Assembly (NCBI GenBank): GCA_963720375.1
Contig: CAVRFM010000023.1
Span: forward strand, 18,179 to 82,178
Direction of reading: 5' to 3'
DNA: 64,000 bases
Source: an uncultured Chloroflexia bacterium
GTDB taxonomy: Bacteria > Chloroflexota > Dehalococcoidia > UBA2247 > RBG-13-53-26
Shown piece after piece: positions 11,310 to 30,329 of the stretch (the first letter of the stretch is position 1; each line of letters begins with the position of its first letter). The position numbers and the translations under genes were made by a program. Under the pieces are notes generated by a model. It ran no database searches. It had not been told where the DNA came from and worked only from the letters and a program-made list of their open reading frames with translations.

Positions 11310-12246
11310 AGTCCTGTGGCTGAGGATCTCTTCGGCGGCGGAGTAGGGATCAATCTCGCCTTTCTCCACCTTTTCCAGGTAGCAGTTGAGCTGGCTGTCA
11401 CCCTCAACCAATTGTAGAATCTGGGTGGTGATCCTGATTCTCTATGGTGCGAAGCAGGTCTGCCTTGCGCTGCTGCTGACGCCTCAGGGCGAGTTTGCCA
11501 CTCTGTTTAAGGGCCTGATAGTGGTTTTCAACATGTTGATAGAGTTCTCTGGTGCCTACGTCGTTGGTGGCCTGGGTGGCCACAACGGGGACTTGCCACC
11601 ACGATTGTTTTGGGCTCTGGTGGAGCATTGATATCAACTCGCCTACCAGGTAATCCGCCCCGGGGCGGTCGGCCTTGTTCACAGCGAAGATATCGGCGAT
11701 TTCCATCAGTCCGGCTTTCATGGTCTGAATGGTGTCCCCGGCTTCGGGGACCAGGATGACGACGACGGTATCAACGGTCTCCATGACATCAATCTCTGTC
11801 TGCCCAACGCCAACCGTCTCCACGAAGATGATGTCCTTACCGGAGGCATCCATGAGCTTGATTACACTGGAGGCCGTCCGAGGCAGTCCTCCATGGCTCC
11901 CCCGGGTGGCCATGCTGCGAATGAAGACGCCGTCATCAAGGAAGTGCTGCTGCATCCTGACCCTGTCTCCCAGCACAGCGCCTCCCGAAAACGGGCTGGT
12001 GGGGTCAACAGCTATGATGCCGACCTGCAACGCCTTCTCTCTGGCGATGGCAGTCAGTCTGCTGACCATGGTGCTCTTCCCGCCTCCCGGCGGGCCAGTG
12101 ATGCCAACACAGAAGGCCTTGCCTGTGTGGGGATAGATGGCCCTCATTAGTTCGGGCACCTCGTCGCTTTCCCTCTCCACCGTGGTGATCAGCCGTGCCA
12201 AGGATAGCCTGTCACCAGCGAGCATTCTCTCTATAATTTCAGTCAT
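11250..12246 (-). CDS. meaB: methylmalonyl-CoA mutase-associated GTPase MeaB/ArgK, interrupted by an apparent +1 frameshift near 11433
   Basis: GITGPPGGGKST P-loop, NKAD G4 motif and the family's C-terminal LEKVEKGEIDPYSAAEEIL. The C-terminal about 55 codons are only readable after skipping one nt (CAG-G-ATC). Confidence 0.75.
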
Positions 12247-12403
12247 TAACGGCTCCTCGTCAGGTTCTGCCAGGGCGTCATGAGGAAGATGGTATGACAG
12301 TCACTGCGATGCTGCTTTTGCATTGTAGGTCTGCTTGTTGATATTATAGATTATAAGGTAAGAATGAGCCCGATTCAAAGTCGGGGAAGATCGAGGAGGG
12401 TCG

Positions 12404-14011
12404 ATGGCTGAGAACAAAAATGGGCAAATATACTCAGTCTCTGGGATCCCCATAAAGGACATCTATACCCCAGAGGACGTGAAGAATATCAACTACGAGA
12501 AAGACATCGGCGCCCCCGGCAAGCCTCCATATACTCGGGGCGTGTACGCCAGTATGTACCGGGGCCAACTGTGGACCATCAGGCGTCTCACCGGCTATGA
12601 CAGCCCGGAGGCCACCAACGCCCGCTACAAGGAGGAGTATGCCCTGGGGCAGACAGGCTTCTCCATTGCTCCCGATATTTCCACTCCTTCGGGCATGGAC
12701 CCGGATGACCCCAGAGTGGCGCATGATATTGGCCACGCCGGCGTTCCCATCTACTCCATCGAAGATATGGAGGCTGTCTTCAAGGATCTGCCCATAGAGA
12801 AGTGTTCTGCTTTCTTGGCAGACAGGGTTGGTGGACTGCTGACACCTGCATACTTCGTCATGGCGCAAAGGCGAGGCATACCCCTCGATCAGGTCAGAGG
12901 GACAACGGCCAACGACATGCTGACCTGGAGCTCGATGGAGCTGGCCAACCAGCCTCCGCCAGAGGCCTACTTCCGGCTCTCCGTGGACCTCGTCGAGTGG
13001 TGCGCTCAGTACGCGCCGCGGTGGTATCCCATATCCATGAACTCCTACAACCCCAGAGACAACGGCATCAGCGCTATCCAGGAGCTGGGCATGCTCATGG
13101 CGGATGTTATCCAGTATTGCGATGAGGGGAAGCGGCGGGGCAGGGTTCCTTTGGACAAGTTCTGCAAGAGGTTTGCGTTCAACATGGCTGCCAACAACGA
13201 TCTCTTTGAGGAAATATGCAAACTACGTGCGGCCCGGCGCATGCTGCGCAAGATCATCAACGAAAGATTCGGGGTACAGGACCCGGCGTGCGGACAGTTC
13301 CGGGTGCACGTCCAGACCTCAGGCTCCACTCATACGCACCAGGAGCCTCTGAACAACGTCATCCGCATTGCCTACCAGACACTGGCTGCTGTCTTGGGCG
13401 GAGCCCAGTCTATACACGCCAACGGCTATGATGAAGCGGTGTGCCTGCCGACGGAACAAGCCATGCTGCTGGCCATTCGGACGGAGCAGATAGTAGGGCT
13501 CGAGTCCGGTGTTACCAATACCATAGACCCGCTCGGAGGCTCTTACTATGTTGAGTCCCTGACCAATGAGATAGAGAAGAGGGCATGGGAATATATCAAG
13601 AAGATCGAAGACCAGGGTGGTCTCTTGAAGGCCATCACCAATGGATGGATTCACCGGGAGTACAAACAGGCCATCATTGACTACGACAACAAACTGAAGT
13701 CCGGCGAACTTACCATTGTGGGCGTCAACAAGTTCCGCCTCGATCCGGACAAGGTGCCCTACAAGGTGCCCATCTTCAAGTCCGATCGGACCTCTGTCGA
13801 GTTTCTCAAGCAAAGGATCAAGAAGCTCAGAGAGACCAGGGACAAAGCCAAGCATGCCCAGGCCATGAAGAAGCTGGACGAGGTCCTCCGCAGCGACGCC
13901 AACTCTGTCCCGGCTATCAAGGAAGCGGTGGAAGCACATGCTACCCCCGGAGAGTTGGGGGCGGCTGTGATGAAAGTCTACGGCAAGTGGGCCTACCCGA
14001 TCGGTGTCTAG
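12404..14011 (+). CDS. methylmalonyl-CoA mutase-family catalytic (substrate-binding) subunit
   Basis: RGVYASMYRGQLWTIRRLTGY...PRVAHDIGHAGVPIYSIEDM matches the MCM/ICM alpha-subunit TIM-barrel signature. 535 aa, with a separate B12 subunit downstream. Confidence 0.8.
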   Translation: MAENKNGQIYSVSGIPIKDIYTPEDVKNINYEKDIGAPGKPPYTRGVYASMYRGQLWTIRRLTGYDSPEATNARYKEEYALGQTGFSIAPDISTPSGMDPDDPRVAHDIGHAGVPIYSIEDMEAVFKDLPIEKCSAFLADRVGGLLTPAYFVMAQRRGIPLDQVRGTTANDMLTWSSMELANQPPPEAYFRLSVDLVEWCAQYAPRWYPISMNSYNPRDNGISAIQELGMLMADVIQYCDEGKRRGRVPLDKFCKRFAFNMAANNDLFEEICKLRAARRMLRKIINERFGVQDPACGQFRVHVQTSGSTHTHQEPLNNVIRIAYQTLAAVLGGAQSIHANGYDEAVCLPTEQAMLLAIRTEQIVGLESGVTNTIDPLGGSYYVESLTNEIEKRAWEYIKKIEDQGGLLKAITNGWIHREYKQAIIDYDNKLKSGELTIVGVNKFRLDPDKVPYKVPIFKSDRTSVEFLKQRIKKLRETRDKAKHAQAMKKLDEVLRSDANSVPAIKEAVEAHATPGELGAAVMKVYGKWAYPIGV

Positions 14012-14444
14012 AGAAGGAGAAGAAGCAATGACTCAGAAGAAAGTCAGAGTTCTAATGGCCAAGCCGGGGCTGGAGGGTCACTGGCGCGGATTGATTTCCG
14101 TCAGCCAGGCTTTCAAGGATGCCGGCTTTGAAGTGATATACGGTGGCAGCATGCCTCCGACTGAGATCGCTGCGACCGCTCTTCAGGAAGACGTTGATAT
14201 AGTTGGCCTCAGCATACTCTGCTCCAACTACATGGAGCTGGTCACCGAGGTCATGAAGGAGCTCAAGGCCAAGAAGAAGGATGACGTAATCGTCATATTG
14301 GGTGGCATCATCTACGAGGAGGATTTTGATGCACTCCACAAGATGGGCGTCGATGGGATATACATTCCGGGCACTCCTCTGGACGATATAGTGGCCTCGG
14401 TCCGCCAAATCATTACCCGGGGCAAGAGGAAGGTTACCAGGTAG
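14004..14444 (+). CDS. cobalamin-binding small subunit of acyl-CoA mutase
   Basis: 146 aa. B12-binding Rossmann-like domain (VIYGGSMPPTEI, DIVGLSIL). 8-bp overlap with the catalytic-subunit gene. Confidence 0.75.
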   Translation: MSREGEEAMTQKKVRVLMAKPGLEGHWRGLISVSQAFKDAGFEVIYGGSMPPTEIAATALQEDVDIVGLSILCSNYMELVTEVMKELKAKKKDDVIVILGGIIYEEDFDALHKMGVDGIYIPGTPLDDIVASVRQIITRGKRKVTR

Positions 14445-14564
14445 GATTGGCCCACCGGGGGGAGTACCACTATCCATACTCCCCTTATGGCTGGCTTACT
14501 CCTACATCCACAGCAAAGTCGGGTAGGCTGGAGCATTGCGGCTCCGCCTCCCCGTTTCCGTCAC

Positions 14565-14579
14565 AGGGGCTTCGCCCCT
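14565..14579 (+). terminator. GC hairpin AGGGGC-TTC-GCCCCT after the mutase genes (weak, no U-tract)
   Basis: Perfect 6-bp stem seen directly. It starts a 580-bp gene-free AT-rich spacer. Confidence 0.3.
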
Positions 14580-15029
14580 CTGCACTCCCCAGTTGCTAAA
14601 CAATCTCACTTCCTCAAGTTTGACACTTAGAACGAGCCTATCTTATACTTAAGCTGCGATCAGCTTCTAGACTCAATCTCTGGACTCAGTTTTTGTAACT
14701 AGCGAGGAAGAAATATTGGTGCCGACTGCGGCTGTAAAGCAAGGCCACATACTGGGGTCTGATTACAATGGGTTTGTTTTGACTATAGCTGGAGTCCAGG
14801 TATCTGATCCTTCAACCAGTTTTCTCCGACTTAACTACACCTGCGATTCTATATACTATGTCCGGAGATGTTTTGATTCCTGCCAAAGGTAATCATGTGG
14901 GGGATGATAGGTTTTCAAGACTATCGGGTTTCGGTGTTCAAGCTGTGGTATCGGACGGAATGTCTTACCAGTGTTGATAGGCTTGTCTATAGTATATATC
15001 CTTGTGGTCTATAATCGAGGAGGGAGTGA

Positions 15030-15500
15030 ATGAGTGTAAAGGATCCATTGTGGTTGGCGAAGCATCTACATAGCAGGAAAAGGGTCCTGATCATGGCCGG
15101 TGCCCTGTGCGATCAAATAGAGCTGGAGGGCAAGAGCTTATTGGATTACGTAGCAGAGATATCCAAGAAGATAAATGCGCCCATTGCTGCTACGGGGAAT
15201 ACGGTTAATGGCTTGAGACAAAGAGGCATCGATACAAAAAAGGCATGGGCGATCGAAATGGTGAATTTCACGCGCTATGACTGGAAGCACCCTATCATGA
15301 ATGGAAAACCTGAAGTAATGGTCTTCATAGGCTATAGCCCGACACTTGCCAGCAACCTGGTCTCCGCGGTCAAGGATGTGGAGACTGTTGTGCTGGGCAA
15401 TACGTGTGTTGATGAGGCGACTTACTCTCTTCCTGATACCACCAGCTTCAAGGCGTGGCAGAAGGAACTGACGGATTTGATCCAGGCACTGGGGAAATAA
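15030..15500 (+). CDS. cdhB: CO dehydrogenase/acetyl-CoA synthase epsilon subunit (CdhB-like)
   Basis: 156 aa. VLIMAGAL...INAPIAATGN...MVFIGYSP pattern matches archaeal CdhB (PLLMVGTL...IPIAATG...MVIAIGF, recalled from memory). Confidence 0.6.
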   Translation: MSVKDPLWLAKHLHSRKRVLIMAGALCDQIELEGKSLLDYVAEISKKINAPIAATGNTVNGLRQRGIDTKKAWAIEMVNFTRYDWKHPIMNGKPEVMVFIGYSPTLASNLVSAVKDVETVVLGNTCVDEATYSLPDTTSFKAWQKELTDLIQALGK

Positions 15501-15509
15501 TAGCGCGAA

Positions 15510-16079
15510 ATGAACGATCAGGCTGCGATACCGAAGGAGCGGGCCAGTGACGGTGAGTTCCGGCACTACGTATTCAGTGTGTCGGAGGTGCGTGCTGAGA
15601 CAGAGCGATTTCTGGGGCAAGTAGGATACGAACTCAAGCCTCCAAAGTACATTGGCCTTGTTCAGCCTGATTTTCGAGCAAAGCGCAAGACGAGCAGTGG
15701 TACCTATGAACTTGTTGGGATGGTGCGTGACAATTTGGATCAGGCAGTTGAGGCGCTTACCAAGCTGGCTGCCGTAAAGGCTGCCAATCGTAATGTTGAC
15801 TGTGTCCTGGTTTTGCCTCCCATAAACGAGTACCTCTTGATCGAATGGCTGACAGAGGAGAGCGGTCGATGGTACTTTGGCCTGAAGGACTGCAAAATCG
15901 TGGTGTGGTTCTGCAATCCGGACAATAAGACAACGATATGCGTTATTGGAGCGCCGGCAGACAGGGACTTCCAGAAGCACTTCTATATGAGTACGATGAG
16001 TTTCGATGACTACATGTCTATCAGAGCGTCTCACCTCATTAAAGAGAGGCTTCTGGCAGAAGAAGAGGAAGAAGAGTAG
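15510..16079 (+). CDS. hypothetical protein with poly-Glu C-terminus
   Basis: 189-aa ORF tightly packed between cdhB and the SDR gene. No recognisable motif. Confidence 0.4.
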   Translation: MNDQAAIPKERASDGEFRHYVFSVSEVRAETERFLGQVGYELKPPKYIGLVQPDFRAKRKTSSGTYELVGMVRDNLDQAVEALTKLAAVKAANRNVDCVLVLPPINEYLLIEWLTEESGRWYFGLKDCKIVVWFCNPDNKTTICVIGAPADRDFQKHFYMSTMSFDDYMSIRASHLIKERLLAEEEEEE

Positions 16080-16127
16080 GCCGAAGAAGGCCTTCTAGAT
16101 CAAGCAAAAGATACTCTTGAGGAGGAG

Positions 16128-17054
16128 GTGAGAATGGCTAAACATCTGGAAGGTAAGAATGCTGTGGTCACCGGCGGAGGCCGGGGCATAGGAAGAGCAG
16201 TGGCATTGGAATTGGCCAGGAATGGCGCCAAGGTAGTCGTATCTGATCTCGGCGGCAGCGCGGCTGGAGAAGGCTCTGATGCGACGCCGGCGCAGCAGGT
16301 GGCAGATGAGATCAAGAAGGCTGGTGGGCAAGCGGTTGCCAATCATGATAACGTCACCGATTTCGCTGCGGCAGAGCGGATCATCAAGACATGCGTGGAC
16401 AACTTCGGCAGGATAGACATTCTGGTCAACTGCGCCGGTATTCTGCGTGATCGCATGATCTTCAACATGACGGAACAGGAGTGGGATGCCGTTATCGCTG
16501 TTCATCTGAAGGGCATGTTCAACATGTGCCGCCATGCATCCAGACTGATGAGGGAGCAGAAGTGGGGACGAATTGTTAGTACTACCTCTGATGCCTGGCG
16601 GGGTGCGCCGGGACAGCCTAACTACAGCGCCGCCAAGGGCGGCATTGTAAGTCTCACCTACACCATGGCGGGAGAGTTGGGCAAGTATAATGTGACTGTG
16701 AATGCCATTGCTCCAATAGCAGCTACCAGACTGACGATGAGTGATGAGGTGAAGGCGAGATTCACCAGGGCTCTTGAAGCGGGCATGATGAACAAGGAAC
16801 AGTATGAGGAGGCAATAAACATGCCCGGGCCGGAGTTTGTGGCTCCAATAGTGGCCTACCTTTGCACGGAAGAGGCAAAAATCATCAATGGTAAGGTTAT
16901 CGGGGTCAGCGGTGGTCGCGTGGCTATCTATACCAAACCATTCGAGATTGCGGGCCTCCATAGGCAGCCTAGGAAAGATGGTGCCTGGACAGTGGACGAG
17001 CTGATCAAGTTAGTCCCCGGGACTTTGATGGCTACACCATTGGTCATGATGTAG
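16128..17054 (+). CDS. SDR-family oxidoreductase (paralogue of 8977..9900)
   Basis: TGGGRGIGRA, NCAG, YSAAK motifs. Domain layout matches the 8977 product. Confidence 0.7.
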   Translation: MRMAKHLEGKNAVVTGGGRGIGRAVALELARNGAKVVVSDLGGSAAGEGSDATPAQQVADEIKKAGGQAVANHDNVTDFAAAERIIKTCVDNFGRIDILVNCAGILRDRMIFNMTEQEWDAVIAVHLKGMFNMCRHASRLMREQKWGRIVSTTSDAWRGAPGQPNYSAAKGGIVSLTYTMAGELGKYNVTVNAIAPIAATRLTMSDEVKARFTRALEAGMMNKEQYEEAINMPGPEFVAPIVAYLCTEEAKIINGKVIGVSGGRVAIYTKPFEIAGLHRQPRKDGAWTVDELIKLVPGTLMATPLVMM

Positions 17055-17082
17055 TTTGTGATCTTAAAGCGGATTTAACCTC

Positions 17083-17112
17083 GGTGCACCGTGCCTTAGA
17101 CCACGGTGCACC
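17083..17112. promoter_or_regulatory. perfect 11-bp inverted repeat GGTGCACCGTG-N8-CACGGTGCACC
   Basis: Seen directly between the SDR stop and the cdhC-1 start. No U-tract, so it is more consistent with a regulator binding site or an attenuator than with a simple terminator. Confidence 0.4.
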
Positions 17113-17241
17113 GGGATTTGGTTGTCTGGAGGAACAAGCAAAAACTGGCCTGTTTGAGAAGGCGCTTGTCTAAGGGTCTTCTCAAGCATGGCACAGTCTG
17201 ATATCTGATATATGTATGGATCTATGTAGAAGGAGGTCAAT

Positions 17242-18606
17242 GTGAGTGTTGCGGAAAGTGCCGAGATAAAGATACCAGCCGGAAGGGAGTATCAGTTGCC
17301 GACCGACCCTGATCATCTGTGGGATGGGTTGAAGGATATCGGGTTGGGGATAAGATGGGTAGCTGAGGTAAAAAAGGCCGACATGCAAATTGAGCTGTCG
17401 GGGCCAAAGTGGGAATACAAGAGTTACACCATCCTTGAGATCGTAGAAGAACCGGGGAAGGTCAGGAACGGCATAGTTAACCTTGTTGGCCCGGATATAC
17501 ATGAAGTCCCGCCTGGGAGTTCCTTCCCTATGGCATGGGACATCAAGGTCTATGGCCATGGGATAACCCAGAGACACCGGGAATACATTGAAAGACAAAT
17601 GGCCATGTCATTACATGGTATAGAGGGCTATATGGCCTTTGGCTCATTCCAGGCCCCCTGGATGCGCTTCAGCAAGGCTATCGTTGGACGACTCACCTTT
17701 GCGAAGCTGTGCCAGGTCATACATGCCTACGTCAAGACCGTTGTCCCGCAGGTGGAGGCGATGGAGTTCCGCTGGATCATTGCATCGGAGGAAGTTGGTG
17801 GCCTCAAGCTGATTGAGCCACTTTACAGGTTGGGTATCCAGAGGCTGAAGGCGCAGGAGCTGTCGGTCTCTCTTGAAGATGCTGATGTGGATATCTTCTA
17901 TGGCTGCACTATCTGCAAGTCGCTGGCCCCCAACCACGTGTGCGTCATTACACCGAGCCAGATACCGTACTGTGGCATCCTCTCCTATAATGGAGCGCAG
18001 GTGACGGTGGAGCTTGATCCGGAGGGCTATATCTTCCGGATGAGCAAAGGCGAGTGCAAAAATGAACAAATGGGCAGCTACACCGGTGTGGATGAGGCAG
18101 TCTACGAGAGGTCTAACCATCAGATAAAGCATGTGAATGTCTTCAGTGCCATAAAGTATCCTACTACCAACTGCGGTTGCTTCGAAGGGGCGGCATTCTA
18201 CATTCCTGAAGTAGATGGCCTTGGCCTGGCTATAAGACGGTACATTGGGGTAACTCCGTTGGGCGTAAAGTTCTCGCGTCTGGCCGGCATGATTTCGGGC
18301 GGCTCTCAGAATCATGGAAATAAGGGCGTATCCATGCGGTCCATGCAAAGCAAGACCTTTCTCAAGGGCGATGGAGGTTGGAGCAGGATAGTGTGGATGC
18401 CCGCCGATTTGAAGAAGGAAGTCGCGGAATACATTCCCGAAGAGATCTACGATAAGATTGCCACTGAGCAGGATACCGTTGATCCTATCGAGCTGAAAGA
18501 GTTTCTAAAGAAGAAGAAGCATCCGATAGTAGAGAAGTATTGGAAGAATGGCGAACCACAGCCACTGAAAGTACCACTCCCCGGAGCGAAGTGGCCCGAC
18601 GAATAG
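17242..18606 (+). CDS. cdhC: acetyl-CoA synthase catalytic subunit, archaeal short type (CdhC/AcsB-like), copy 1
   Basis: 454 aa. Contains the A-cluster Cys-Gly-Cys motif (NCGCFE) plus upstream Cys residues (CTICKS...CGIL). Confidence 0.75.
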   Translation: MSVAESAEIKIPAGREYQLPTDPDHLWDGLKDIGLGIRWVAEVKKADMQIELSGPKWEYKSYTILEIVEEPGKVRNGIVNLVGPDIHEVPPGSSFPMAWDIKVYGHGITQRHREYIERQMAMSLHGIEGYMAFGSFQAPWMRFSKAIVGRLTFAKLCQVIHAYVKTVVPQVEAMEFRWIIASEEVGGLKLIEPLYRLGIQRLKAQELSVSLEDADVDIFYGCTICKSLAPNHVCVITPSQIPYCGILSYNGAQVTVELDPEGYIFRMSKGECKNEQMGSYTGVDEAVYERSNHQIKHVNVFSAIKYPTTNCGCFEGAAFYIPEVDGLGLAIRRYIGVTPLGVKFSRLAGMISGGSQNHGNKGVSMRSMQSKTFLKGDGGWSRIVWMPADLKKEVAEYIPEEIYDKIATEQDTVDPIELKEFLKKKKHPIVEKYWKNGEPQPLKVPLPGAKWPDE

Positions 18607-18622
18607 CCTTTGGAGGTGGACT

Positions 18623-18838
18623 ATGGGAGAGAAGACCTGCGGTGTTTGTCAGAAGAAGGTAGCGGAGTTTGCATGTAGTGTGTGTGGCGTACCTCTGTGT
18701 GCTGAATGTGTTCGAGAGGTAGCCATAGAAAACCCTGGTCAGAGAGTTCTGGGTGTATTAACCAGCCCTTTGAAGTCCGGAATGAAGAAGCAAAAAGTAT
18801 GTGAGAAATGCATGAAGGAAGTGGACTTTGTTGAGTAG
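18623..18838 (+). CDS. Cys4x2 zinc-ribbon small protein, copy 1
   Basis: 71 aa with four CxxC pairs (CGVCQ, CSVCG, CAEC, CEKC). A paralogue sits at the same position in module 2. Confidence 0.6.
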   Translation: MGEKTCGVCQKKVAEFACSVCGVPLCAECVREVAIENPGQRVLGVLTSPLKSGMKKQKVCEKCMKEVDFVE

Positions 18839-19120
18839 CGCGGCTCCTTCTTGCTGTTGTTTTGGTGACCCTGTAATTTACAGCAAGTCACTTGATTGCC
18901 GAGAGGCTTTGACTTATTTGCTGGTGTATTCACTTTCTCAAGGTTCTTAAAGACGAAATTCAGTGGTATTTCGAACACGACATTGAAGAAGATCTCTACA
19001 CACTCTGCAGTGAATACCGGGAAGGTCTGCCAGGTGAATAGAGGATATATGTGTTCTGAATCGGTCGTCAATTGTTTGTTCTGCTGACTCAATTAAGCGA
19101 TATCTGGGAGGGAGAAAGCT

Positions 19121-21622
19121 GTGAAAGATAAGAGAATTGCTCATGTCGGATCTCTGGAGGTCGATATCAGCACAGTCGTGCGTGACCCGCGCGGTCATGA
19201 AGACGAAATTGTCGAGATAATGGAGAACGACTTTGTTGAGGGCCGCCATAGTAATTTTGGAGGATGGATAACTCTACTGCCCGATGCGGCAGACATAGCA
19301 GAACTGGATTATGCTCTGTTGAGCAGGTATCCGCCGTTATACACTCAGCCCAATGGTGTTTGCACTGACTGTGGCCTGGGCCCCTGCAACTTGAAAGAGG
19401 GTCAGGGAAAGTGCGGACTGGATATGGAGGCTTTCCAGGGCAGGTTAAGCTTACGGAAAGCATGCCGGGGTTGTATGACTCAACTAGTGGCCAGCCGACA
19501 ATTGCTGAACTACGCTCTCAAACGCTGGCCGGAGGATACGCCTGTCAGCATGGGTGAGATTCTCGGTATCTCAGATCATGCTCCTGCCATAAGCGTGTTA
19601 TCCGGGATACACGTAAAGACTTTAAGAGATCTTAACAGAGCGCTTTCTTATGGAGAGGAACAACTGGCCAAGCTCTTTCAGGCGAGTTATTCGGGCACTG
19701 GAACGGCGGTGAATTTTGAAAGCATGGTGCTGCATGCCGGGTCTGTTTTGCTCCTCACCATGGGTGTGGCTGAGCTGCTGAAGATCTCCTGCTATGGCTT
19801 TATCAGTGCTGCCAATCAGCCACTGGAGGCGATCGAGCAGTTTCCTCCTGCCACTTTAAATGGTGGGTGGGCATCCATGGAGAGTGGGAAGCCTGTCATA
19901 GCCTTTGTTGGGGATGACTTCCTGCCGGCATGGTGTGCCATCGATCATATGAAGCAGAACGGTCTGACAGAAAAGATTGAGATATGCGGCATGGGTTCAG
20001 CCGGTGATGACATAGTGAGATTCTACGATAGGTGCCGGATCGTGGCCCCGATGGTGAGGGCGCCAAAGGCGATCAGAAATGGCCTGTTTGATGTGGTTGT
20101 GGTCAGTCCAGGATGTATTCCCCTGGACCTTCTATCCCAGGCGGAGCGTGTCGATAGCAAGGTTATATGGGTTGGTCACAATGGAATCAGCAATCTAGCG
20201 GATAGCACGGATGAGCCATCAGACAAGATAGTAGAGGCCTTACTTCATGGAGGAAAGGCAGTCTGGATCAGGGACGTAGAGAAGGCTGGTGAGGTGGCGG
20301 TGAAGTTGGCACAGAAGGTCAAGAGAAGTGGTAATTACATTATCTCTGACGATGAAGCAATAAAACAGGCAAAGGGCCATAAGCAGGATTGTGATATTTG
20401 TTCCAGTGTCTGTCCCAATAATCTGCCTGTATCCAGGGCGGTCAGAGAATTGGGTAAGGGTGACTGGAAGGGTTTCTTCGAGGTGGAGAAAGGATGCAAT
20501 TTCTGCGGCAAATGTGATGAGGCCTGCCCCAGCAAGGTTCAACTGCGCGATATCATTGTGGCTGCCGAGAGAAAGCAGGCCGGCACCGATAAATTCATAA
20601 TGAGGCCAGGCAGGGGGCCGATATCAATAACTGAGCTGCTGCAATCTGCTTTCGCAGTAGGCTGGGGCAGCATACCAGCCATGGTGACCATCTTTGGTTG
20701 CGGCGATGCCAAGAAGGAGGAGATCGCCTGGATAGCCAGTGAGTTGCTTAACGGCGGTTGCATGGTCTTTGTGGCAGGGTGTGCCGGAGCTGAAGTAGCT
20801 CGATCTTTCAGCCAGGCGAAGAAGAAGTACCTCTTTCAAGAATATGCTGGCACTTGTGCCTCGAGAAATATTGTGAATTGCGGCAGTTGCTCTGCTATTT
20901 GCCATGCTGTCCCGATGTATCTCATGCTGCGGCCTTCTGGTGGCATTCCTCTGTATGGCAATCTACCACCGCTGGGAGATTCCATCAGTCTTGGTGGTGC
21001 TCAGTCTGTGATCATGTGGGGGGCATTGCCGGACAGAATGTATGCGGTGGCAGCTGCCTGGGCTCGGCTTGGATCAACGGTCATTGTAGGGCCTGCCTCA
21101 TCCTCAGGATGGAACCGCTACCTGGTTGGTGATAGATATGATCGCAGCAAGTGGTGGGTCTATCATGGTGAGACGGGTAAGAGGCGTGAGGTTGAACCGG
21201 TAAAGGAACACTGCATTGTGCCCGTGGAAACTAAAGAGGAAGCGTTGACTATGCTGGCAAGGTCTGTGTTGAATGTAAAGGACTACAGAGAGAGCCGAGC
21301 TACTCACCTGGAGGTGATGATTGACTACTTTGAGCGCTTCTATCAGCAGTTGCCGGAGGATTGGCCTCTCTTTGTGAGGTCAGATTTCGAACTGCCGCCG
21401 AGATACAGACGACGCATGGTCAATCTCCTGGGATCCGAGTATGGATGGGAGACTGAAGGTGTGAAGGTTAAGAGAGCAAAGAATAGAGATGGCAAGCTAA
21501 TGACCATGTCTGAGTTCGCAGCTAACTATGGGATGGAGCAAGGGATATATAGCACAAGGCTTCGCACCCAGTTACCCCTACGTCTCAGGGGTGTGGCTGA
21601 TGAAGGTAAGTCTAAAAAGTAA
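19121..21622 (+). CDS. cdhA: CO dehydrogenase catalytic subunit, archaeal CdhA-like, copy 1
   Basis: 833 aa. N-terminal CTDCGLGPC...GKCG Cys cluster. Two internal ferredoxin motifs (CDICSSVCPNN; CNFCGKCDEACPS) are typical of archaeal CdhA. Adjacent to cdhB and cdhC. Confidence 0.65.
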   Translation: MKDKRIAHVGSLEVDISTVVRDPRGHEDEIVEIMENDFVEGRHSNFGGWITLLPDAADIAELDYALLSRYPPLYTQPNGVCTDCGLGPCNLKEGQGKCGLDMEAFQGRLSLRKACRGCMTQLVASRQLLNYALKRWPEDTPVSMGEILGISDHAPAISVLSGIHVKTLRDLNRALSYGEEQLAKLFQASYSGTGTAVNFESMVLHAGSVLLLTMGVAELLKISCYGFISAANQPLEAIEQFPPATLNGGWASMESGKPVIAFVGDDFLPAWCAIDHMKQNGLTEKIEICGMGSAGDDIVRFYDRCRIVAPMVRAPKAIRNGLFDVVVVSPGCIPLDLLSQAERVDSKVIWVGHNGISNLADSTDEPSDKIVEALLHGGKAVWIRDVEKAGEVAVKLAQKVKRSGNYIISDDEAIKQAKGHKQDCDICSSVCPNNLPVSRAVRELGKGDWKGFFEVEKGCNFCGKCDEACPSKVQLRDIIVAAERKQAGTDKFIMRPGRGPISITELLQSAFAVGWGSIPAMVTIFGCGDAKKEEIAWIASELLNGGCMVFVAGCAGAEVARSFSQAKKKYLFQEYAGTCASRNIVNCGSCSAICHAVPMYLMLRPSGGIPLYGNLPPLGDSISLGGAQSVIMWGALPDRMYAVAAAWARLGSTVIVGPASSSGWNRYLVGDRYDRSKWWVYHGETGKRREVEPVKEHCIVPVETKEEALTMLARSVLNVKDYRESRATHLEVMIDYFERFYQQLPEDWPLFVRSDFELPPRYRRRMVNLLGSEYGWETEGVKVKRAKNRDGKLMTMSEFAANYGMEQGIYSTRLRTQLPLRLRGVADEGKSKK

Positions 21623-21700
21623 ATACGAACCCCCCGCCAGGTTCTGTACCCTGGCACGGTAGTCACGGGAAATAGGGGTTTCTGAACGTAGAAACCGATT

Positions 21701-23101
21701 GTGTTGTGTAGGTTCCACGAAAGGGGTATACAAATGGCTATTCCAGAGGAAGAAGCAGTATCCAAACTCCCACCGGGAAGGATATTTCAGTTGCCGACAG
21801 ACCTTGATCACCTTTGGGACGGGCTGGATGACGTCGGGCTCGGTCTAAGGTGGTTGAGTGAGGTGAAGAAAGCTGACATGCACATTGAGTTGGGTGGGCC
21901 TAAGTGGGACTATAAGATGTTCTCCATCTTCTACATTGAGGAAGATCCGGAAAAGGTCAGGGATGGAGAAGTCAAGTTGATCGGCCCGGACGTTCCAGAA
22001 GTGGCAGCAGGCACCTCATTACCCGGCGGGTTTACGATAAGGATCTATGGTAAACAATTGACTCAAGCACATCAGGGCTATGTATCCAGACAGATAGGAA
22101 CTGCGCTGCAAGGCATAGAAGGATTCATGCTCTTTGGAACGCCGGATGCTCTGTGGATAAGGATAAGCAAAGACGTGGCGAACAGGTTGACCTTTGCCAA
22201 GATATCTCAGTTTTGCTATGCCACCGCGAGAACGCTGATCCCTCAGGTAGATGCCATAGCATTCTTCTGGGCAGTAGGAGCTCCTGAAGTCGGTGGTGTT
22301 GAGATGATAAACCCGCTGGTTACCTGGGCTAAGGAGAAGTTTAAGATCATAAGTGCCAAGGAGCTCTACGATGATGAAGACGTAGATACCTTCTATGGTT
22401 GCACGATCTGCAAATCCCTGGCGCCAAATCATGCCTGTGTCCTTACGCCAAGCGCGCTGCCTTACTGCGGCATCATCGGCTATGATTCGGCTAAGGTAAC
22501 AGCAGAAATAGACCCGGAAGGGTATGTTTTTACTATTCCTAAAGGTGAATGCTTGGATCAGGAGAAAGGGCATTACACGGGAGTCGACCAGGCCATATGG
22601 GAGAAATGCAATCATCTGGTAAAGCGCGTGAACATCTACAGCAGCATAAACTATCCGACTACCAATTGTGGGTGCTTTGAGGCAGCATCTTTCTACATAC
22701 CGGATGTTGATGGTATCGGTCTGGCTATGCGGCGCTATACCAAGATGACACCGCTCGGTGTCAAGTTTTCCACTTTGGCAGGTATGATCTCCGGTGGGGC
22801 TCAGAATCATGGGTTCAAGGGATTGTCGATTGCCGGTATGGCGAGTAAGAACTTCCTGCGAGGAGATGGCGGTTGGAACCGGGTAGTCTGGATGCCTGCG
22901 GATTTGAAGAGGGATATCGCGGATGTGATTCCAGAGGAGGTCTATGACAAGATTGTCACTGAGGAAGAGACTATTGATCCTCTGGAGCTCAAGGAGTTGC
23001 TCCGCAAGAAAGGACACCCAATAGTCAAGCTGTTCTGGAAGAATGGCGAACCCCAGCCATTAAAGTTGCCGCTTCCCGGTGAAGACTGGCCGGATAACTA
23101 A
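21701..23101 (+). CDS. cdhC: acetyl-CoA synthase catalytic subunit (CdhC-like), copy 2
   Basis: 466 aa, about 60% identical to copy 1. NCGCFE A-cluster motif retained. Confidence 0.75.
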   Translation: MLCRFHERGIQMAIPEEEAVSKLPPGRIFQLPTDLDHLWDGLDDVGLGLRWLSEVKKADMHIELGGPKWDYKMFSIFYIEEDPEKVRDGEVKLIGPDVPEVAAGTSLPGGFTIRIYGKQLTQAHQGYVSRQIGTALQGIEGFMLFGTPDALWIRISKDVANRLTFAKISQFCYATARTLIPQVDAIAFFWAVGAPEVGGVEMINPLVTWAKEKFKIISAKELYDDEDVDTFYGCTICKSLAPNHACVLTPSALPYCGIIGYDSAKVTAEIDPEGYVFTIPKGECLDQEKGHYTGVDQAIWEKCNHLVKRVNIYSSINYPTTNCGCFEAASFYIPDVDGIGLAMRRYTKMTPLGVKFSTLAGMISGGAQNHGFKGLSIAGMASKNFLRGDGGWNRVVWMPADLKRDIADVIPEEVYDKIVTEEETIDPLELKELLRKKGHPIVKLFWKNGEPQPLKLPLPGEDWPDN

Positions 23102-23342
23102 ATTTAGATTTGGGGGAATGTTTATGGAAAAGATGTGTGATCTATGCCAAAAAAGGGTAGCGCCGTGGACATGCCATGAATGTGGTATCGCTTTGTGTGA
23201 CGAATGTTCCCGTGAGGTTCGTATTGATTCTACCAGACCTGGCCAGAGAATGATGGGCCGGATCACCAGCCCCATGAAGTCAGGGGTGCAGAAACTAAAG
23301 GTCTGCGAGAAGTGCTTCAAGGAAAAGGAGTTTCTCGGATAA
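23079..23342 (+). CDS. Cys4x2 zinc-ribbon small protein, copy 2
   Basis: 87 aa. CDLCQ, CHECG, CDEC, CEKC. Overlaps the cdhC-2 stop. Confidence 0.55.
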   Translation: MKTGRITKFRFGGMFMEKMCDLCQKRVAPWTCHECGIALCDECSREVRIDSTRPGQRMMGRITSPMKSGVQKLKVCEKCFKEKEFLG

Positions 23343-23365
23343 GAGGTACCCTTTTCTGGTGATGG

Positions 23366-25871
23366 TTGCTGAGGAGAGAAGTAATGGAGAAAAAGAGGAT
23401 TGCCCATGTAGGGCCTCACAAAGTTGACATAAGTGAAGTGGTGCGTGATCCCCGTGGTATTGAGGATATAGTCACGGAGATACTGGAGAAAGACTTTGTT
23501 GAGAGCCGCTATTCACAATTTGGGGCGTGGTTGAATATCTTGCCCGACGCGGCGGATATCGGTGATTGGGATCGCACTCTGCTGGAAAGATATGTGCCGC
23601 TATATACTCAGCCTCAAGGCACGTGCATTGATTGTGAGTTGGGTCCTTGCAGATCTCAAGGTAAGCAAAGGTAAATGCGGATTAGAGATGGATTCGTTTC
23701 AAGGCAGGCTGAGTTTGCGCAAGGCCTGCCGTGGCTGTATGGGCCAGATGGTAGCTACTCGTCATTTGTTGAACTATGCATTGAAGTTATGGGATGAAAG
23801 CAAGGCTGTCAGCATGGGTGAGCTCTTGACCATGTCGGATGCCTGCCCTCCTGTAGGCACTTTGAGCGGCATCTATGTGAAAACCCTCAAGGACTTGAAC
23901 AGGGTGCTCTCATATGGAGAGGCGCAGTTGGCTAAGCTGATGTCTGCGAGCTATTCAGGCACCGGAGCAGTGGCGGATTTTGAGAGCATGGTGATGCATG
24001 CTGGTTCTGTTCTGCTTCTGGCTATGGGAGTGTCTGAGATGATTAAGGTCGCTTGCTTCGGCTTTACGTCAGCCGCTAACCATAAGATTGATGAACTGGA
24101 GAATTTCCCGCCGGCCAACGTGGTTGGAGGATGGCCGTCCATAAAGGAAGGTAAGCCGGTAATTGCCTTTGTCGGCGATGATTTTCTGCCGGCATGGTGT
24201 GCCATAGAGTATCTCAAGCAGAATGAATTGTTGGACAAAGTCGAGATATGCGGTATTGGCCCTGCAGGTGATGACGTGGTGCGCTTCTATGACAAGTGCC
24301 GCATAATCGCTCCGATGGTGAAGGCGGGCAAAGCTATCAGAAATGGTGTCTTCGATGTGGTTGTAGCTGCGAACGGATGTATTCCTTTGGATATGCTATC
24401 TGAAGCGGCAAGGGTAAAGAGCAAGTTCATATGGGTAGGAGCGCAGGGAGTTGGCAATCTGGTCGATAAGACTGATGAACCTCTGGACAAGATAGTGAGT
24501 GCTCTGGTTGATGGTGAAGAGGCAGCTTGGATTAGAGATGTTGAGAAGGCTGGCCAGGTAGCAGTCAAGGTAGTCCAGCAAGTGAAGAGAACACGGCAAT
24601 TTATTCTAAGTGATGAGTTGGCAGTTGCGCAGGCTAAGAAGTGTAAGGATGATTGTGATCTTTGCTCTAGTGCTTGCCCCAATAGCTTGCCATTATCAAA
24701 GGCGGTCAGACTGTTACGCGGCGGTAACTGGGATGGTTTCTCAGAGGTGGAGAGAGGGTGCTATTTCTGTGGAAAGTGTGAAGAGGCTTGCTCGGCTGGG
24801 GTGAGGCTGCGTGACATAATAGTAGCGACTGAAAGGAAACAAGCGAAGAAGGACAAATTCATTATGAGAGCGGGAAGAGGTCCTCTCCCCCTCACTGAGA
24901 TACTGCAGTCGGCTTTTTCCATGGTCTGGGGTAATGCTCCCGGTATCGTGGTGATAGCGGGTTGTGGTGATGCTTCCCGCGATGATATCGGATGGCTGGC
25001 TCAAGAATTAACCAGACGAAACTGCATTGTCTTTGTGGCTGGATGCGCCGGTGCTGAGATTGCCCGCAACTACAGCGAAAGGAAGGGTAAGTATATTTTT
25101 GAGCAGTACCTGGCTTCTATTGAGCCACGGTCTCTCATCAACTGCGGTGGCTGCACCGCAATTTCCCTGGCGAACAACATGTATATGTACTCGCGTGCTG
25201 CCGGAGGCATTCCTCTCTATGGGGGCATACCAGAGGTAGGCGAAGGGTCACTTTATACTACCTTCACGTTGCTTGTGTGGGGTGCTCTGCCTGACAGGAT
25301 GTATGCAGCAGCAGCAGCATATGCCCGTCTTGGGATAAGGGTTGTAGTGGGTCCGGCTTCGGGTTGGACTTGGGGTCGCTATTTGCCTGGCAATAGGTAT
25401 GATCGGAGCAAATGGTGGGTCTATCATGGAGACAATGGTAGTAAGAGGGAAACCGAACCTGTTCCGGAGCATTTTATTATCCCCGTGGAAACCAAAGAGG
25501 AAGCACTGACCATGATGCCCCACACTTTCTTCAGTACATCTGAGATGAGGGAGGGTCGGGCTGCTCGTCTTGACCTGCTTATTGAGTTGTATCGGCTGTT
25601 CTATGGCCAACTTCCCGATGATTGGGATTTGTTGGTGAGGTCCCATTTGGATATCCCGACTAGGCACAGGATCAGGTTGGTTAAGCTACTTCGGGATGAA
25701 TATGGTTGGGAAGGCGATGGATTGAAGATTACCAAGGCCAGGAATCGTGATGGGAAACTGTTAACCCTGTCGGAATTCAATACCAGCTACGGTATGGAGC
25801 TGGGAAGATACCACTGCAGACTGAAGAGACTATTGCCAAAGAGTGTGAGAGATAGAGAAAAGGGCAGTTAG
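23366..25871 (+). CDS. cdhA: CdhA-like CO dehydrogenase subunit, copy 2, with apparent +1 frameshift at ~23651
   Basis: ORFs 23366..23674 and 23562..25871 together reconstitute a CdhA-1 homologue. The frames join directly after CELGPC (TGC-A-GATCTC). Confidence 0.6.
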
Positions 25872-26365
25872 TCCTCCTCATCCTTAGTTTCCTCCGATTT
25901 TACGAGGTCAAGTGCGCTGAAGGGGCATTTTTCAGCGCATAGGTTACAGATATCAAGACCCGGTACTGCGCGTTTACAGCTTGACCATTCTACTACGTTA
26001 AGATTGCCGTCTATCACTTTAATGACTGGTGGTACGGGGGCGCGCTGAGAGAGCCTGCCGCCGGAAGTGATAGTGGTAAGTGCTCTATCGCAGACGGCGA
26101 CGCAATCACCGCAACCGGTGCATCTCGACCTATCAATGACGTGATCTGTACCTTTGATGCGCTCTCCTTCCCCCAACATCTCCTTCAGCATATCGTATGA
26201 ATCACGGAATTCTTCCTTGAGAAGGAGGGGGCAGTCAGCCGGCTTCTTATTCCTGCTTATGAGGTCGAAGGCAAAGGCATAACACGTGGGAGAACCACAG
26301 AGCTTACAATTGGTGCGTGGCAATAGCCTGTACATCTGGAGCGGTTGAAGATCTTTCTTAGGCAA
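25868..26365 (-). CDS. RnfB-like polyferredoxin
   Basis: The N-terminal LPRTNCKLCGSPTCYAFAF motif is the Fe-S domain found in RnfB and the AcsC N-terminus. Two CxxCxxCxxxC(P) ferredoxin motifs follow. Confidence 0.6.
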   Translation of the reverse strand: MPKKDLQPLQMYRLLPRTNCKLCGSPTCYAFAFDLISRNKKPADCPLLLKEEFRDSYDMLKEMLGEGERIKGTDHVIDRSRCTGCGDCVAVCDRALTTITSGGRLSQRAPVPPVIKVIDGNLNVVEWSSCKRAVPGLDICNLCAEKCPFSALDLVKSEETKDEED

Positions 26366-26762
26366 CTTTCCTCCTGACCAGGAGGTCTGAGGGCGTGGTA
26401 ATATTCTTTTCGGTCGGTATGGCTGTCACATCTATCATCTTAAGGTTTGGCAGTTGCGATACCGATGGATCGTAGCTTCCCAGGTAGTTAGAATACAGGC
26501 TGGACGGCATATGGCCTATGCCTTCTTCGATAGCGGTTTCTGATTTTGCTGCCACCACCACGGAGCCTGATTTGCCTCTGATCTCGATAGGGGCGCCACT
26601 CTTAAGCCCCAGCTTTTTCAGATCAGCCGCGGATAGGTGCACCACGGCAGACCTGGTCTGATATTCATCGCCCAATCCATCTCTCTGCCTGGCAATCGCC
26701 TGGTGAATATCGTCATAGGTCACGATGGTCAGACTAATACCCTGGTTAGATGAATCCATCAA
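26358..26762 (-). CDS. fwdD: formylmethanofuran dehydrogenase subunit D-like (molybdopterin-binding domain)
   Basis: 134 aa. Overlaps fwdB by 4 nt. Size and context match the FwdD family. Confidence 0.5.
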   Translation of the reverse strand: MMDSSNQGISLTIVTYDDIHQAIARQRDGLGDEYQTRSAVVHLSAADLKKLGLKSGAPIEIRGKSGSVVVAAKSETAIEEGIGHMPSSLYSNYLGSYDPSVSQLPNLKMIDVTAIPTEKNITTPSDLLVRRKVA

Positions 26763-27982
26763 ATGCTCCCTGCCAATTGTTTCAGGACTTCCTCCTCGGT
26801 AGGCTGATCTACTTTTTTTGGCCCGGCTAATGCTACCTCAGCCCCATCCATTCTTATCATTGAGCCACCGTATTCTACGCCGGGCAGTGCTGTTGGTATG
26901 ACCACATCAGCGGAGATCGTGGTAGGTGTACGGAAGTGATCCAAACAGATGACGTTTATGCCCTGCAGATTCTTCATTATGGACTGAGGCAGAGCTGAAA
27001 ACGGATCTGCCCCCATTATTAGCAGGCATTCGGGGACACGGTTTCTTACTTGTTCCAATAAGGAGAACTCACTTCCGTGAGAAATGCTGCCGGCAAAGCT
27101 TATGCTGTTAACATATCCCGTCTGTTTGTAGAGCGATTGATGGAATCCTCTCATGTTGGCTTCTGCGATCATGGGAATCACAGCAACCCTGGTCGACTGA
27201 CTGAACGTATGTACCATCTTGCTGAATGAGGTGAGATCATTGTCAAGAGAGTAGATCAGGCCGAGCCCGCAGAAGATGACGCAAAAGCGAGATTTTGCCA
27301 CCATTTCTCTGAATTTTCTGGCTTCCTCACGTGCGTTTTGTCCCTCATCGAGGATGGTATTGATGAATCCCTTATCCTGTCCAGGCTTGATTCTGAAGGG
27401 CGGCTTACACATTGAGCTTAACTCAGTCTGTCTAACCTCGACGCAGCTTAGTGTTACCTTGGGGTACCATCCGGCGGGATTATAATCAGCATAGGCATAG
27501 TAAGTGTACTTCGAAAGGTGCCTCGGGTGGGTGTGGGGAGGATTGGCACCCCAGTAGATTAGCAGATCTGCATTATCTTTTACTTCGGAGAGAGAGCATG
27601 TTGGCAGATCCTCGGTAAGGATTTTCTGCATCATGACACCATATGAAAAGGATGAGGCGTCATCGATAGTTCCGCCAAGCCTTTTTGCCAGATCGATGGC
27701 AACCGCCTGTGATTCTAAGGTCGAATTATCAAGACCAAAGACGAGGAGATTCTTTGCCTTGGAAAGGAGGTGCACTGCCTCTTGAATGGCTTCTTCCAAA
27801 GAGCGCCTTTGGCCTCTAATGAGGGCCTCTGCCCGGCGCTGCGGATCGAAGCTGGAACGGAGATAGGTCGCCCCCTTGGCACAGGCGTTCTCGATACGGC
27901 CCAGATTGGCACCGTCGATCTCAACCCGGATATCGTCGCATAGGCAACCGCATCCGGTGCAGACCAAGTTCTGAAAGCTCAA
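26759..27982 (-). CDS. fwdB: formylmethanofuran dehydrogenase subunit B-like (bis-MGD oxidoreductase fold)
   Basis: N-terminal VCTGCGCLCDD Fe-S motif and downstream blocks (DLLIYWGANPPHTHPRH) align with archaeal FwdB as recalled from memory. Confidence 0.65.
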   Translation of the reverse strand: MSFQNLVCTGCGCLCDDIRVEIDGANLGRIENACAKGATYLRSSFDPQRRAEALIRGQRRSLEEAIQEAVHLLSKAKNLLVFGLDNSTLESQAVAIDLAKRLGGTIDDASSFSYGVMMQKILTEDLPTCSLSEVKDNADLLIYWGANPPHTHPRHLSKYTYYAYADYNPAGWYPKVTLSCVEVRQTELSSMCKPPFRIKPGQDKGFINTILDEGQNAREEARKFREMVAKSRFCVIFCGLGLIYSLDNDLTSFSKMVHTFSQSTRVAVIPMIAEANMRGFHQSLYKQTGYVNSISFAGSISHGSEFSLLEQVRNRVPECLLIMGADPFSALPQSIMKNLQGINVICLDHFRTPTTISADVVIPTALPGVEYGGSMIRMDGAEVALAGPKKVDQPTEEEVLKQLAGSI

Positions 27983-30311: not shown

Positions 30312-30329
30312 TTTGTATATCGTCCGACT

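Follow-up and report, generated by a model that had tools for sequence, protein, structure and literature searches.

Predicted cross-brace zinc-finger proteins encoded with non-canonical CdhA-like and CdhC-like proteins in a Dehalococcoidia genome and in other phyla

The nickel-dependent CO dehydrogenase/acetyl-CoA synthase (Ni-CODH/ACS) is among the best-studied ancient metalloenzyme systems, and we know of no function for the bacterial "A-4/A-6" CdhA-like proteins, which have incomplete active sites. Structural group A-4 was described as a bacteria-only, deep-branching group with an incomplete active site, occurring with ACS beta (Inoue et al. 2019, PMC6344411). It is defined by D, P, C, C, C and C at the C-cluster, Q and R at the acid-base positions, the lack of the D-cluster and the presence of the E- and F-clusters, which are the proposed ferredoxin route in CdhA (PMC6344411). 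In the archaeal acetyl-CoA decarbonylase/synthase (ACDS), a small non-catalytic protein, CdhB (epsilon), is encoded next to cdhA and bound to CdhA. Here we describe two small genes, ZnF1 and ZnF2, each encoding a predicted zinc finger, in a 64,000-nucleotide stretch of contig CAVRFM010000023.1 from an uncultured Chloroflexia bacterium of the Dehalococcoidia (hereafter the window). Like cdhB, they encode small, presumably non-catalytic proteins, lie next to cdhA-like genes and may provide a partner bound to the CdhA-like protein; unlike CdhB, the finger has an unrelated fold, comes in addition to the module's own CdhB-like gene and is missing from canonical operons. The comparisons below suggest that the finger most probably belongs, as a previously unrecognised subunit, to an uncharacterised complex resembling a nickel enzyme.

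GTDB species representatives were scanned with a CdhA-like alignment, and the best 80 of 160 tblastn-confirmed relatives yielded 78 loci, all of which were searched with a hidden Markov model of the finger and with the window proteins. Counts by locus cover 68 loci (56 non-canonical and 12 canonical), and counts by CdhA-like gene cover the genes with upstream sequence available. A finger directly 5' of the non-canonical cdhA-like gene was present in 41 of the 56 non-canonical loci. By gene, it accompanied 44 of 45 CdhA-like proteins carrying a His-to-Asp replacement at the C-cluster (37 as a separate gene and 7 as a fusion), 3 of 18 carrying His to Asn (two from Ca. Alkanophaga and one from Desulfobacteraceae), not the single one carrying His to Phe (0/1), and none of the canonical ones (0/12). 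The presence of the finger followed that of cdhC: among finger-bearing non-canonical loci, 36 had cdhC nearby and 5 did not, all five being on contigs that end where cdhC would lie; among the finger-less ones, none had cdhC nearby and 15 lacked it. No small Cys-rich open reading frame (ORF) replaces the finger in the finger-negative loci. The finger is therefore found directly 5' of, or fused to, non-canonical CdhA-like proteins, only where a CdhC-like protein is co-encoded (the five cut-off contigs aside), and never in canonical systems.

Finger-bearing loci occur in Chloroflexota, several orders of Desulfobacterota, Nitrospinae, Spirochaetota and the archaeon Ca. Alkanophaga. The position of the finger 5' of cdhA-like is fixed in the gene orders C-VWA-ZnF-A-B and VWA-ZnF-A-B-C alike (A, B and C denoting cdhA-like, cdhB-like and cdhC-like). 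Other Chloroflexi have the order MeaB, acyl-CoA mutase subunits, CdhB-like, a 189-aa protein, SDR and C-ZnF-A-C-ZnF-A, and a distant order reads ChlI/MoxR-like AAA+, CooC-like, [CdhC], ChlD-like VWA, ZnF, CdhA-like, CdhB-like, [CdhC], 189-aa protein, FwdB-like, FwdD-like and Fe-S protein, with CdhC at either of the bracketed places. A preliminary description of the window, made from its sequence, had proposed a functionally linked and conserved cdh partner that is foreign to canonical Cdh operons, and the survey bears this out, since homologues adjoin cdh genes in many genomes of several phyla and in none of the 12 canonical loci. Its picture of a gene wedged between cdhC and cdhA holds in Dehalococcoidia; elsewhere the finger is 5' of, or fused to, cdhA-like and its upstream neighbour is usually the ChlD-like VWA gene. 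In a separate observation on archaea, eleven loci from ANME-1 and Methanosarcinales metagenome-assembled genomes (MAGs; L045, L048, L053, L056-L061, L074 and L076) carry His-to-Asn CdhA-like paralogues that stand alone, and among archaeal methane- or alkane-oxidiser MAGs only the His-to-Asn paralogues of the two Ca. Alkanophaga loci (L050 and L054) are accompanied by a finger together with cdhB, cdhC and the 189-aa protein.

The two finger genes in the window (Table 1) are paralogues that share 57% identity and 77% similarity (E = 3e-28). ZnF1, with the sequence MGEKTCGVCQKKVAEFACSVCGVPLCAECVREVAIENPGQRVLGVLTSPLKSGMKKQKVCEKCMKEVDFVE, has its cysteines at positions 6, 9, 18, 21, 26, 29, 60 and 63. 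Its Shine-Dalgarno (SD) sequence GGAGG (18612-18616) begins 5 nt after the cdhC-1 stop codon (18604-18606), and the ATG follows 6 nt further on. The longest ORF for ZnF2 in the ORF list runs from GTG 23079 to 23342 (87 aa). The true start is almost certainly ATG 23124, because GGGGGA (23112-23117) sits 6 nt upstream of it and because the homologues are all 72-74 aa long and begin there, with MxE(K)xC; GTG 23079 was rejected on these grounds. With the cdhC-2 stop codon at 23099-23101, a 22-nt gap separates the two genes, which do not overlap. The preliminary description was thus right that two ORFs with four CxxC pairs occupy the same position in both modules, and wrong in the 87-aa length and the overlap with the cdhC-2 stop. 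It had also named very weak conservation between the copies outside the cysteines as grounds for rejecting a functional partner; the conserved residues, however, include the loop PGQRxxGxxTSPxKSG and, at the C-terminus, KVCEKCxKExxF. A distinct signature is retained in each of the two finger types (ENPGQRVLGV versus DSTRPGQRMMGR). The spacer between ZnF1 and cdhA-1 (18839-19120) is unusually long at 282 nt, compared with 41 nt in copy 2 and 84-300 nt in relatives. It shows no excess RNA structure (z = -0.01) and is conserved only at the SD and GTG of cdhA-1. An Rfam scan of 14300-26000 gave zero matches, and a promoter and terminator scan near the finger gave nothing above chance. Further upstream, the region that separates the SDR gene from cdhC-1 contains a strong GC-rich hairpin of 14 bp with a T-rich stretch after it (17080-17115, + strand), which may be a terminator or an attenuator in front of the C-ZnF-A unit.

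Both ZnF1 and ZnF2 are real genes under strong purifying selection. Orthologues of the copy-1 type have a median pairwise dN/dS (nonsynonymous to synonymous substitution rates) of 0.074 and those of the copy-2 type one of 0.084, with dS near 1.4, and these values together with the conservation rule out a chance ORF or non-coding stretch. Word-indexed searches found 46 close homologues (30 of copy-1 type and 16 of copy-2 type) with 67-99% identity, which, where named, are "hypothetical protein" in Chloroflexi MAGs. The closest public relative of ZnF1 is 99% identical (locus L006), and an exact look-up of ZnF1 gave no identical record. An exhaustive profile search of 1.84 billion representatives gave 51 matches at E <= 1e-3, which include about 40 prokaryotic proteins of 58-97 aa. 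Across 37 diverse members, aligned with a mean column identity of 32%, seven cysteines are invariant, and the eighth, C29, gives way to His or Asp in two members; a single close homologue has Phe at C60. Public labels for members are "hypothetical", "B-box zinc finger protein" and "zinc finger HIT domain-containing protein", and neither Pfam nor NCBIfam has a dedicated model for the family. Two distant members, matched with E of about 1e-11 and 2e-6, have a setting other than cdh genes: one (L093:6001-6213) is on a contig of phage-like character with YopX, thymidylate synthase and many small ORFs, the other (L014:991-1251) beside cell-wall genes.

Profile and structure comparisons indicate that the finger has a cross-braced fold of the B-box/FYVE/HIT/RING type, predicted to hold two zinc ions, and is neither a zinc ribbon nor a rubredoxin, the two identities suggested in the preliminary description. 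ZnF1 scores above the gathering cutoff of Pfam zf-B_box (PF00643; 28.5 bits versus 24.1), and ZnF2 falls below it (20.3 bits). The alignment covers only positions 3-31 of the 42 in the B-box profile. The FYVE profile (PF01363) aligns over positions 9-65 of 67, with scores of 21.7 and 24.3 bits that are below its cutoff of 27.8, and further sub-threshold matches are to the ANCHR-like B-box, zf-HIT and RING. Over the 37 members, matches were found to zf-B_box in 28 (E <= 0.01), ANCHR B-box in 25, zf-HIT in 15, FYVE in 14 and RING in 13, and each family that matches more than 4 of the 37 is a binuclear cross-brace finger. Rubredoxin, in which two CxxCG knuckles form one Fe(Cys)4 site, gave zero matches in Pfam at E <= 1, in NCBIfam and over the 37 members, and ferredoxin families gave zero Pfam matches at E <= 1. 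Matches to zinc ribbons, in which two knuckles on a sheet of three strands hold one Zn, were weak and sub-threshold (DZR/DZR_2, 2 of 37 members). A sequence profile search of the PDB returned the B-box1 of Midline-1 (E = 0.005) and the B-boxes of CONSTANS. The AlphaFold2 (AF2) model has a mean pLDDT of 70.7, with 75-87 over the N-terminal 30 residues and 51-64 in the loop. When it was searched with Foldseek, the top matches were FYVE/RIM-type structures (TM 0.48-0.62 over 66-71 columns), among them the RIM2 zinc finger 2a20 at probability 1.00 and the EEA1 FYVE domain 1hyi at TM 0.58/0.62 over 71 columns; B-box and RING domains ranked after them. By analogy with these FYVE, RIM and B-box structures, the eight cysteines would hold two metal ions in a cross-brace (pairs 1 and 3, pairs 2 and 4), and the metal is presumably Zn rather than Fe.

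Each of these families differs from the finger in some respect. The ligand spacing, C-x2-C-x8-C-x2-C-x4-C-x2-C-x30-C-x2-C, follows that of B-box and FYVE fingers except that an insertion of 30 residues precedes the last pair. As far as the sixth ligand it is the spacing found in B-boxes (PF00643; Midline-1 B-box1, CONSTANS), with which the finger would also share the two-site cross-brace and the role of a protein-protein interaction module, both predicted for the finger. However, its last pair is Cys-x2-Cys and lies 30-32 residues beyond the third pair, past the conserved loop, whereas the corresponding His/Cys pair of a B-box follows within about 10 residues, so that the finger is not a compact B-box of about 40 residues; moreover, it is a stand-alone prokaryotic protein tied to a metalloenzyme, unlike the domains of the TRIM or CONSTANS type. 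Fingers of the FYVE family and their relatives (EEA1 1hyi; RIM2/rabphilin 2a20 and 2cjs) also have eight cysteines in four CxxC pairs, but the finger scores under threshold and has a longer loop between pairs 3 and 4. The FYVE family is characterised by the motifs WxxD, R(R/K)HHCR and RVC, which bind phosphatidylinositol 3-phosphate. All three are absent from every aligned member, and where they would lie the finger has MGEKTC leading up to its first Cys, VAEFAC ahead of pair 3 and KVC ahead of pair 4. Fingers of the RIM type serve purely as adaptors between proteins. The zf-HIT proteins (Hit1, Bcd1), a family that 15 of 37 members match weakly, are likewise binuclear fingers of small size that, in the assembly of complexes, act with AAA+ ATPases or are encoded with them; nevertheless, the finger is under the Pfam threshold, and zf-HIT proteins are eukaryotic factors of small nucleolar ribonucleoproteins.

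The CdhA-like partners in the window are unlikely to be ordinary CO dehydrogenases, although the preliminary description had taken them for cdhA products. Ligands were typed by aligning 82 CdhA-like ORFs, with canonical archaeal sequences as anchors. In cdhA-like 1, the C-cluster His is replaced by Asp, Cys-Cys by Gly-Ser, the acid-base His by Gln and the Lys by Arg, and the D-cluster Cys is absent; cdhA-like 2 has the same changes with Gly-Pro for Cys-Cys. The motifs of the B-, E- and F-clusters are retained in both, and a His replaces the first E-cluster Cys in the copy-1 clade. The score of 450.1 bits against TIGR00314 falls short of the equivalog cutoff for canonical CdhA (781.3). Matched on the published definition (PMC6344411), copy 2 has the exact A-4 pattern (D, P, Q, R) and copy 1 departs from it by Ser for Pro at Cys1. 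The window proteins thus resemble groups A-4/A-6 in ligand pattern, in being bacterial and in occurring with ACS beta, but the description of those groups does not mention a zinc-finger gene (PMC6344411). The CdhC-like partner passes NF003379 (382.3 bits, cutoff 372) and is just under TIGR00316 (353.2 bits, cutoff 355.95), and all A-cluster motif cysteines align with those of 9c0s_E and are present in both window copies. cdhA-like 2 is split into ORFs 23366..23674 and 23562..25871 by one extra A at about position 23653, compared with the intact gene (828 aa) of the 99%-identical relative L006. This frameshift is either a sequencing error or a sign of a recent pseudogene; ZnF2 and cdhC-2 are intact.

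In some lineages the finger and the CdhA-like protein are a single polypeptide. The complete eight-Cys domain forms the N-terminus of two CdhA-like proteins of 910 aa (P0060) and 911 aa (P0078), and the CdhA-like ORFs of seven loci (L009, L066-L070 and L072) also carry an N-terminal finger, the two parts being joined by a charged linker of 30-40 residues. In an approximate neighbour-joining tree, the fused proteins fall into two separate clades, with L009 beside L011, whose finger is encoded separately, a topology that suggests at least two fusion events. The fused forms lack the B-cluster Cys, so that nothing would wire the C-cluster site to a redox centre on the finger; this speaks for a structural role. 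Finger and cognate CdhA-like distance matrices are strongly correlated (r = 0.93, Mantel 0/2000). In the neighbour-joining tree the two window modules go back to a tandem duplication of the C-ZnF-A unit inside Dehalococcoidia, with both paralogue lineages kept in several genomes. Relative to the family this duplication is not ancient, contrary to what had been proposed at the outset.

We favour, with a confidence slightly better than even, the reading of ZnF1 and ZnF2 as small structural zinc-finger adaptor subunits, one for each non-canonical CdhA-like/CdhC-like module. The finger would bind the CdhA-like protein near its N-terminus, of which it is the N-terminal domain in some lineages, and would act as a protein-protein adaptor, required solely where the altered CdhA-like protein has a CdhC-like (A-cluster) partner to work with. 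Its task may be to hold CdhC against CdhA, or to offer the pair of them to the maturation machinery of ChlI/ChlD-like proteins and CooC. Several points weigh against this assignment. The AF2 model is of moderate confidence, with a poor prediction for the conserved loop (residues 36-58); adjacency and a mirror-tree correlation are what any neighbours in an operon would show; the genomes sampled are the best 80 of 160 relatives; and, because distant members are also found away from cdh genes, the fold is a module of general use in prokaryotes, of which the Cdh-linked fingers are one clade only. The finger also co-occurs with VWA, AAA+ and CooC genes in most phyla, which is compatible with a transient role in maturation or assembly. 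In that case it would be a handle for the ChlD-like VWA protein, the ChlI/MoxR-like AAA+ protein and CooC on the apo-CdhA-like protein or CdhC, would serve the insertion of Ni or of a modified cluster and would not remain in the mature enzyme. zf-HIT relatives work with AAA+ assembly machines, and a conserved C-terminal E-x-[DE]-hydrophobic motif of the finger could be a ligand of a metal-ion-dependent adhesion site. Outside Dehalococcoidia the finger gene lies directly after the VWA gene, at 9-25 nt, in a contiguous MoxR-like/CooC/VWA/ZnF set, no finger-less locus has a VWA gene, and MoxR/VWA pairs such as NorQ/NorD are known metal-insertion chaperones (PMC9976466, PMC13036017). A stable subunit is nevertheless preferred, and a purely transient factor considered unlikely, because the covalent fusions in two lineages keep the finger on the mature protein, because Dehalococcoidia have duplicated the finger with each C-A pair yet possess a single VWA/AAA+/CooC set, and because the Ca. 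Alkanophaga loci (ZnF-A-B-C) have no VWA gene within 4-6.6 kb upstream.

The cysteines themselves raise the question of whether the finger carries electrons or metal. All eight are in CxxC pairs and invariant but for the replacements given above, the associated CdhA-like proteins all lack the D-cluster Cys (compare PMC6344411) and the system is rich in Fe-S proteins, so Fe(Cys)4 sites like those of rubredoxin, or else an Fe-S cluster, could offer an electron entry or exit in place of the missing D-cluster. Such a redox centre is nonetheless distinctly improbable, since all sequence and structure matches are to structural zinc fingers and none to rubredoxin or ferredoxin at E <= 1, the B-cluster, which would be the wire to the C-cluster site, has disappeared from the fused forms, and clusters E and F, the proposed ferredoxin route in CdhA (PMC6344411), are retained. 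Still less probable is a chaperone or store of Ni or another metal for the A-cluster or C-cluster-like site, analogous to CooT, CooJ or HypA. The finger is a small Cys-rich protein encoded beside CooC and, in locus L009, also near CooT, but it has no His-rich or MHE-type Ni motif and no match to the CooT or HypA families, the two structural sites of the cross-brace would use all eight cysteines, and fusion to an enzyme is atypical for chaperones. Regulation of the operon, transcriptional or translational, by a nucleic-acid-binding finger seems very remote from the data: the protein is a zinc finger of small size whose net charge is modestly positive, and a JGI annotation calls one member an "RNA-binding Zn-ribbon protein", yet it is fused to the N-terminus of an 830-aa enzyme subunit, has been co-duplicated with C and A in a paralogue-specific manner and belongs to a fold class that typically makes protein-protein contacts, and no conserved or structured RNA element was found beside it.

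The remaining genes of the module in the window (Table 1) lie on both sides of the C-ZnF-A units, and the gene set at 25868-32128 (- strand) is contiguous with ZnF-CdhA-like in other phyla. To our knowledge, canonical cdh operons do not include a chelatase-like AAA+/VWA pair, and none of the 12 canonical loci has one. Directly 5' of the cdh-like genes, at 11404-17054, the window encodes a MeaB GTPase (- strand), the large and small subunits of a B12-dependent acyl-CoA mutase and an SDR protein. Relatives have two mutase pairs and a thiolase, and the deltaproteobacterial group of His-to-Phe CdhA-like proteins also adjoins mutase genes. This neighbourhood hints at acyl-CoA rather than C1 metabolism.

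Table 1 Features of the non-canonical cdh-like modules in the window (positions in nt)
Feature	Start	End	Strand	Length (aa)	Remarks
cdhB-like (epsilon-like)	15030	15500	+	156	Weak match to CO_dh/cdhB; 3' of cdhA-like in most other phyla
189-aa protein	15510	16079	+	189	No Pfam/NCBIfam match; in nearly all module loci, usually after cdhB-like or cdhC-like
cdhC-like 1	17242	18606	+	454	Archaeal-type ACS beta; A-cluster motifs intact (CxxC...C...C and CGC)
ZnF1	18623	18838	+	71	ATG start; eight Cys in four CxxC pairs; predicted cross-brace B-box/FYVE-like finger
cdhA-like 1	19121	21622	+	833	Non-canonical; GTG start and SD conserved in relatives
cdhC-like 2	21734	23101	+		60% identical to copy 1; GTG 21701 in ORF finder; relatives (455 aa) fit ATG 21734
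ZnF2	23124	23342	+	72	MEKMCDL...; paralogue of ZnF1; start revised from GTG 23079
cdhA-like 2	23384	25871	+		Relatives 828 aa; ligands Asp, Gly-Pro, Gln, Arg; 1-nt insertion at ~23653
Fe-S protein	25868	26365	-	165	PF04060 FeS domain (CdhE N-terminus-like) and 4Fe-4S ferredoxin motif; module member
FwdD-like	26358	26762	-	134	Molybdopterin-oxidoreductase-type pair with FwdB-like; module member
FwdB-like	26759	27982	-	407	Pairs with FwdD-like; module member
ChlD/BchD-like AAA+ plus VWA	28101	30311	-	736	Putative maturation set
CooC/MinD-type ATPase	30330	31091	-	253	Putative maturation set
ChlI/MoxR-like AAA+	31088	32128	-	346	Putative maturation set

A wider and tentative proposal, which we regard as possible but on the whole unlikely, is that the finger marks a distinct enzyme system and not the usual CODH/ACS. 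This system would comprise the Asp-containing, Cys-depleted CdhA-like protein, a CdhC with the A-cluster (some apparently Sec-Gly-Sec, where Sec is selenocysteine), the CdhB-like, FwdBD-like, Fe-S and 189-aa proteins and the chelatase-like AAA+/VWA proteins, with the finger as an obligatory alpha-beta adaptor or a handle for metal insertion. Because the Dehalococcoidia clusters hold MeaB, B12-dependent acyl-CoA mutases, SDR and thiolase, such a system could catalyse a new carbonylation or decarbonylation of acyl-CoA-type substrates. A lead towards acetone carbonylation was speculation only and was dropped, as the known Desulfococcus pathway uses other enzymes.

The finger is undescribed in the literature searched, which dealt with Cdh together with MCM, with CooC/VWA/MoxR, with clade A CODHs of Dehalococcoidia and with treble-clef fingers of prokaryotes and did not include a search pairing CdhA with zinc-finger terms, and is unmentioned both in the 2019 classification by Inoue and colleagues (PMC6344411) and in a 2026 marine CODH survey. 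The fold is known, and its use as a dedicated Cdh-like subunit appears to be undescribed; it would be a rare case of a eukaryote-type cross-brace finger recruited into a prokaryotic metabolic enzyme. A dedicated and previously unannotated finger strictly tied to a CdhC partner defines the non-canonical complex as a separate entity and can serve as a simple annotation marker: in genomes of Dehalococcoidia, Desulfobacterota, Nitrospinae, Spirochaetota and Ca. Alkanophaga it sets this system apart from genuine genes of the acetyl-CoA pathway. Metabolic reconstructions that score such genes as "Wood-Ljungdahl" are affected, and automated calls would mislead. The finger also offers a small, taggable handle for purifying the complex.

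A side observation concerns the CdhC-like proteins of other genomes. An in-frame TGA-GGN-TGA stands at the A-cluster Cys-Gly-Cys in five cdhC loci (L037:3874-3882, L040:3378-3386, L073:2745-2753, L087:10946-10954 and L095 at approximately 5120-5128), and TGA-GGG-TGC stands there in a sixth (L094 at approximately 7511-7519). In all six, which come from Deltaproteobacteria, Nitrospinae, Chloroflexi and Desulfobacteraceae, the frame and the conserved sequence continue past the TGA and the gene lies beside VWA-ZnF-CdhA-like. A hairpin, ATCCC-N10-GGGAT, is located about 20 nt 3' of the TGA motif; covariation support for it was looked for and not found. A 2026 selenoproteome review lists HgcA and does not list ACS beta. 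The cdhC genes of the window have the ordinary CGC, and the TGA-bearing sequences suggest selenocysteine (Sec-Gly-Sec) ligands at the Ni site of these CdhC proteins.

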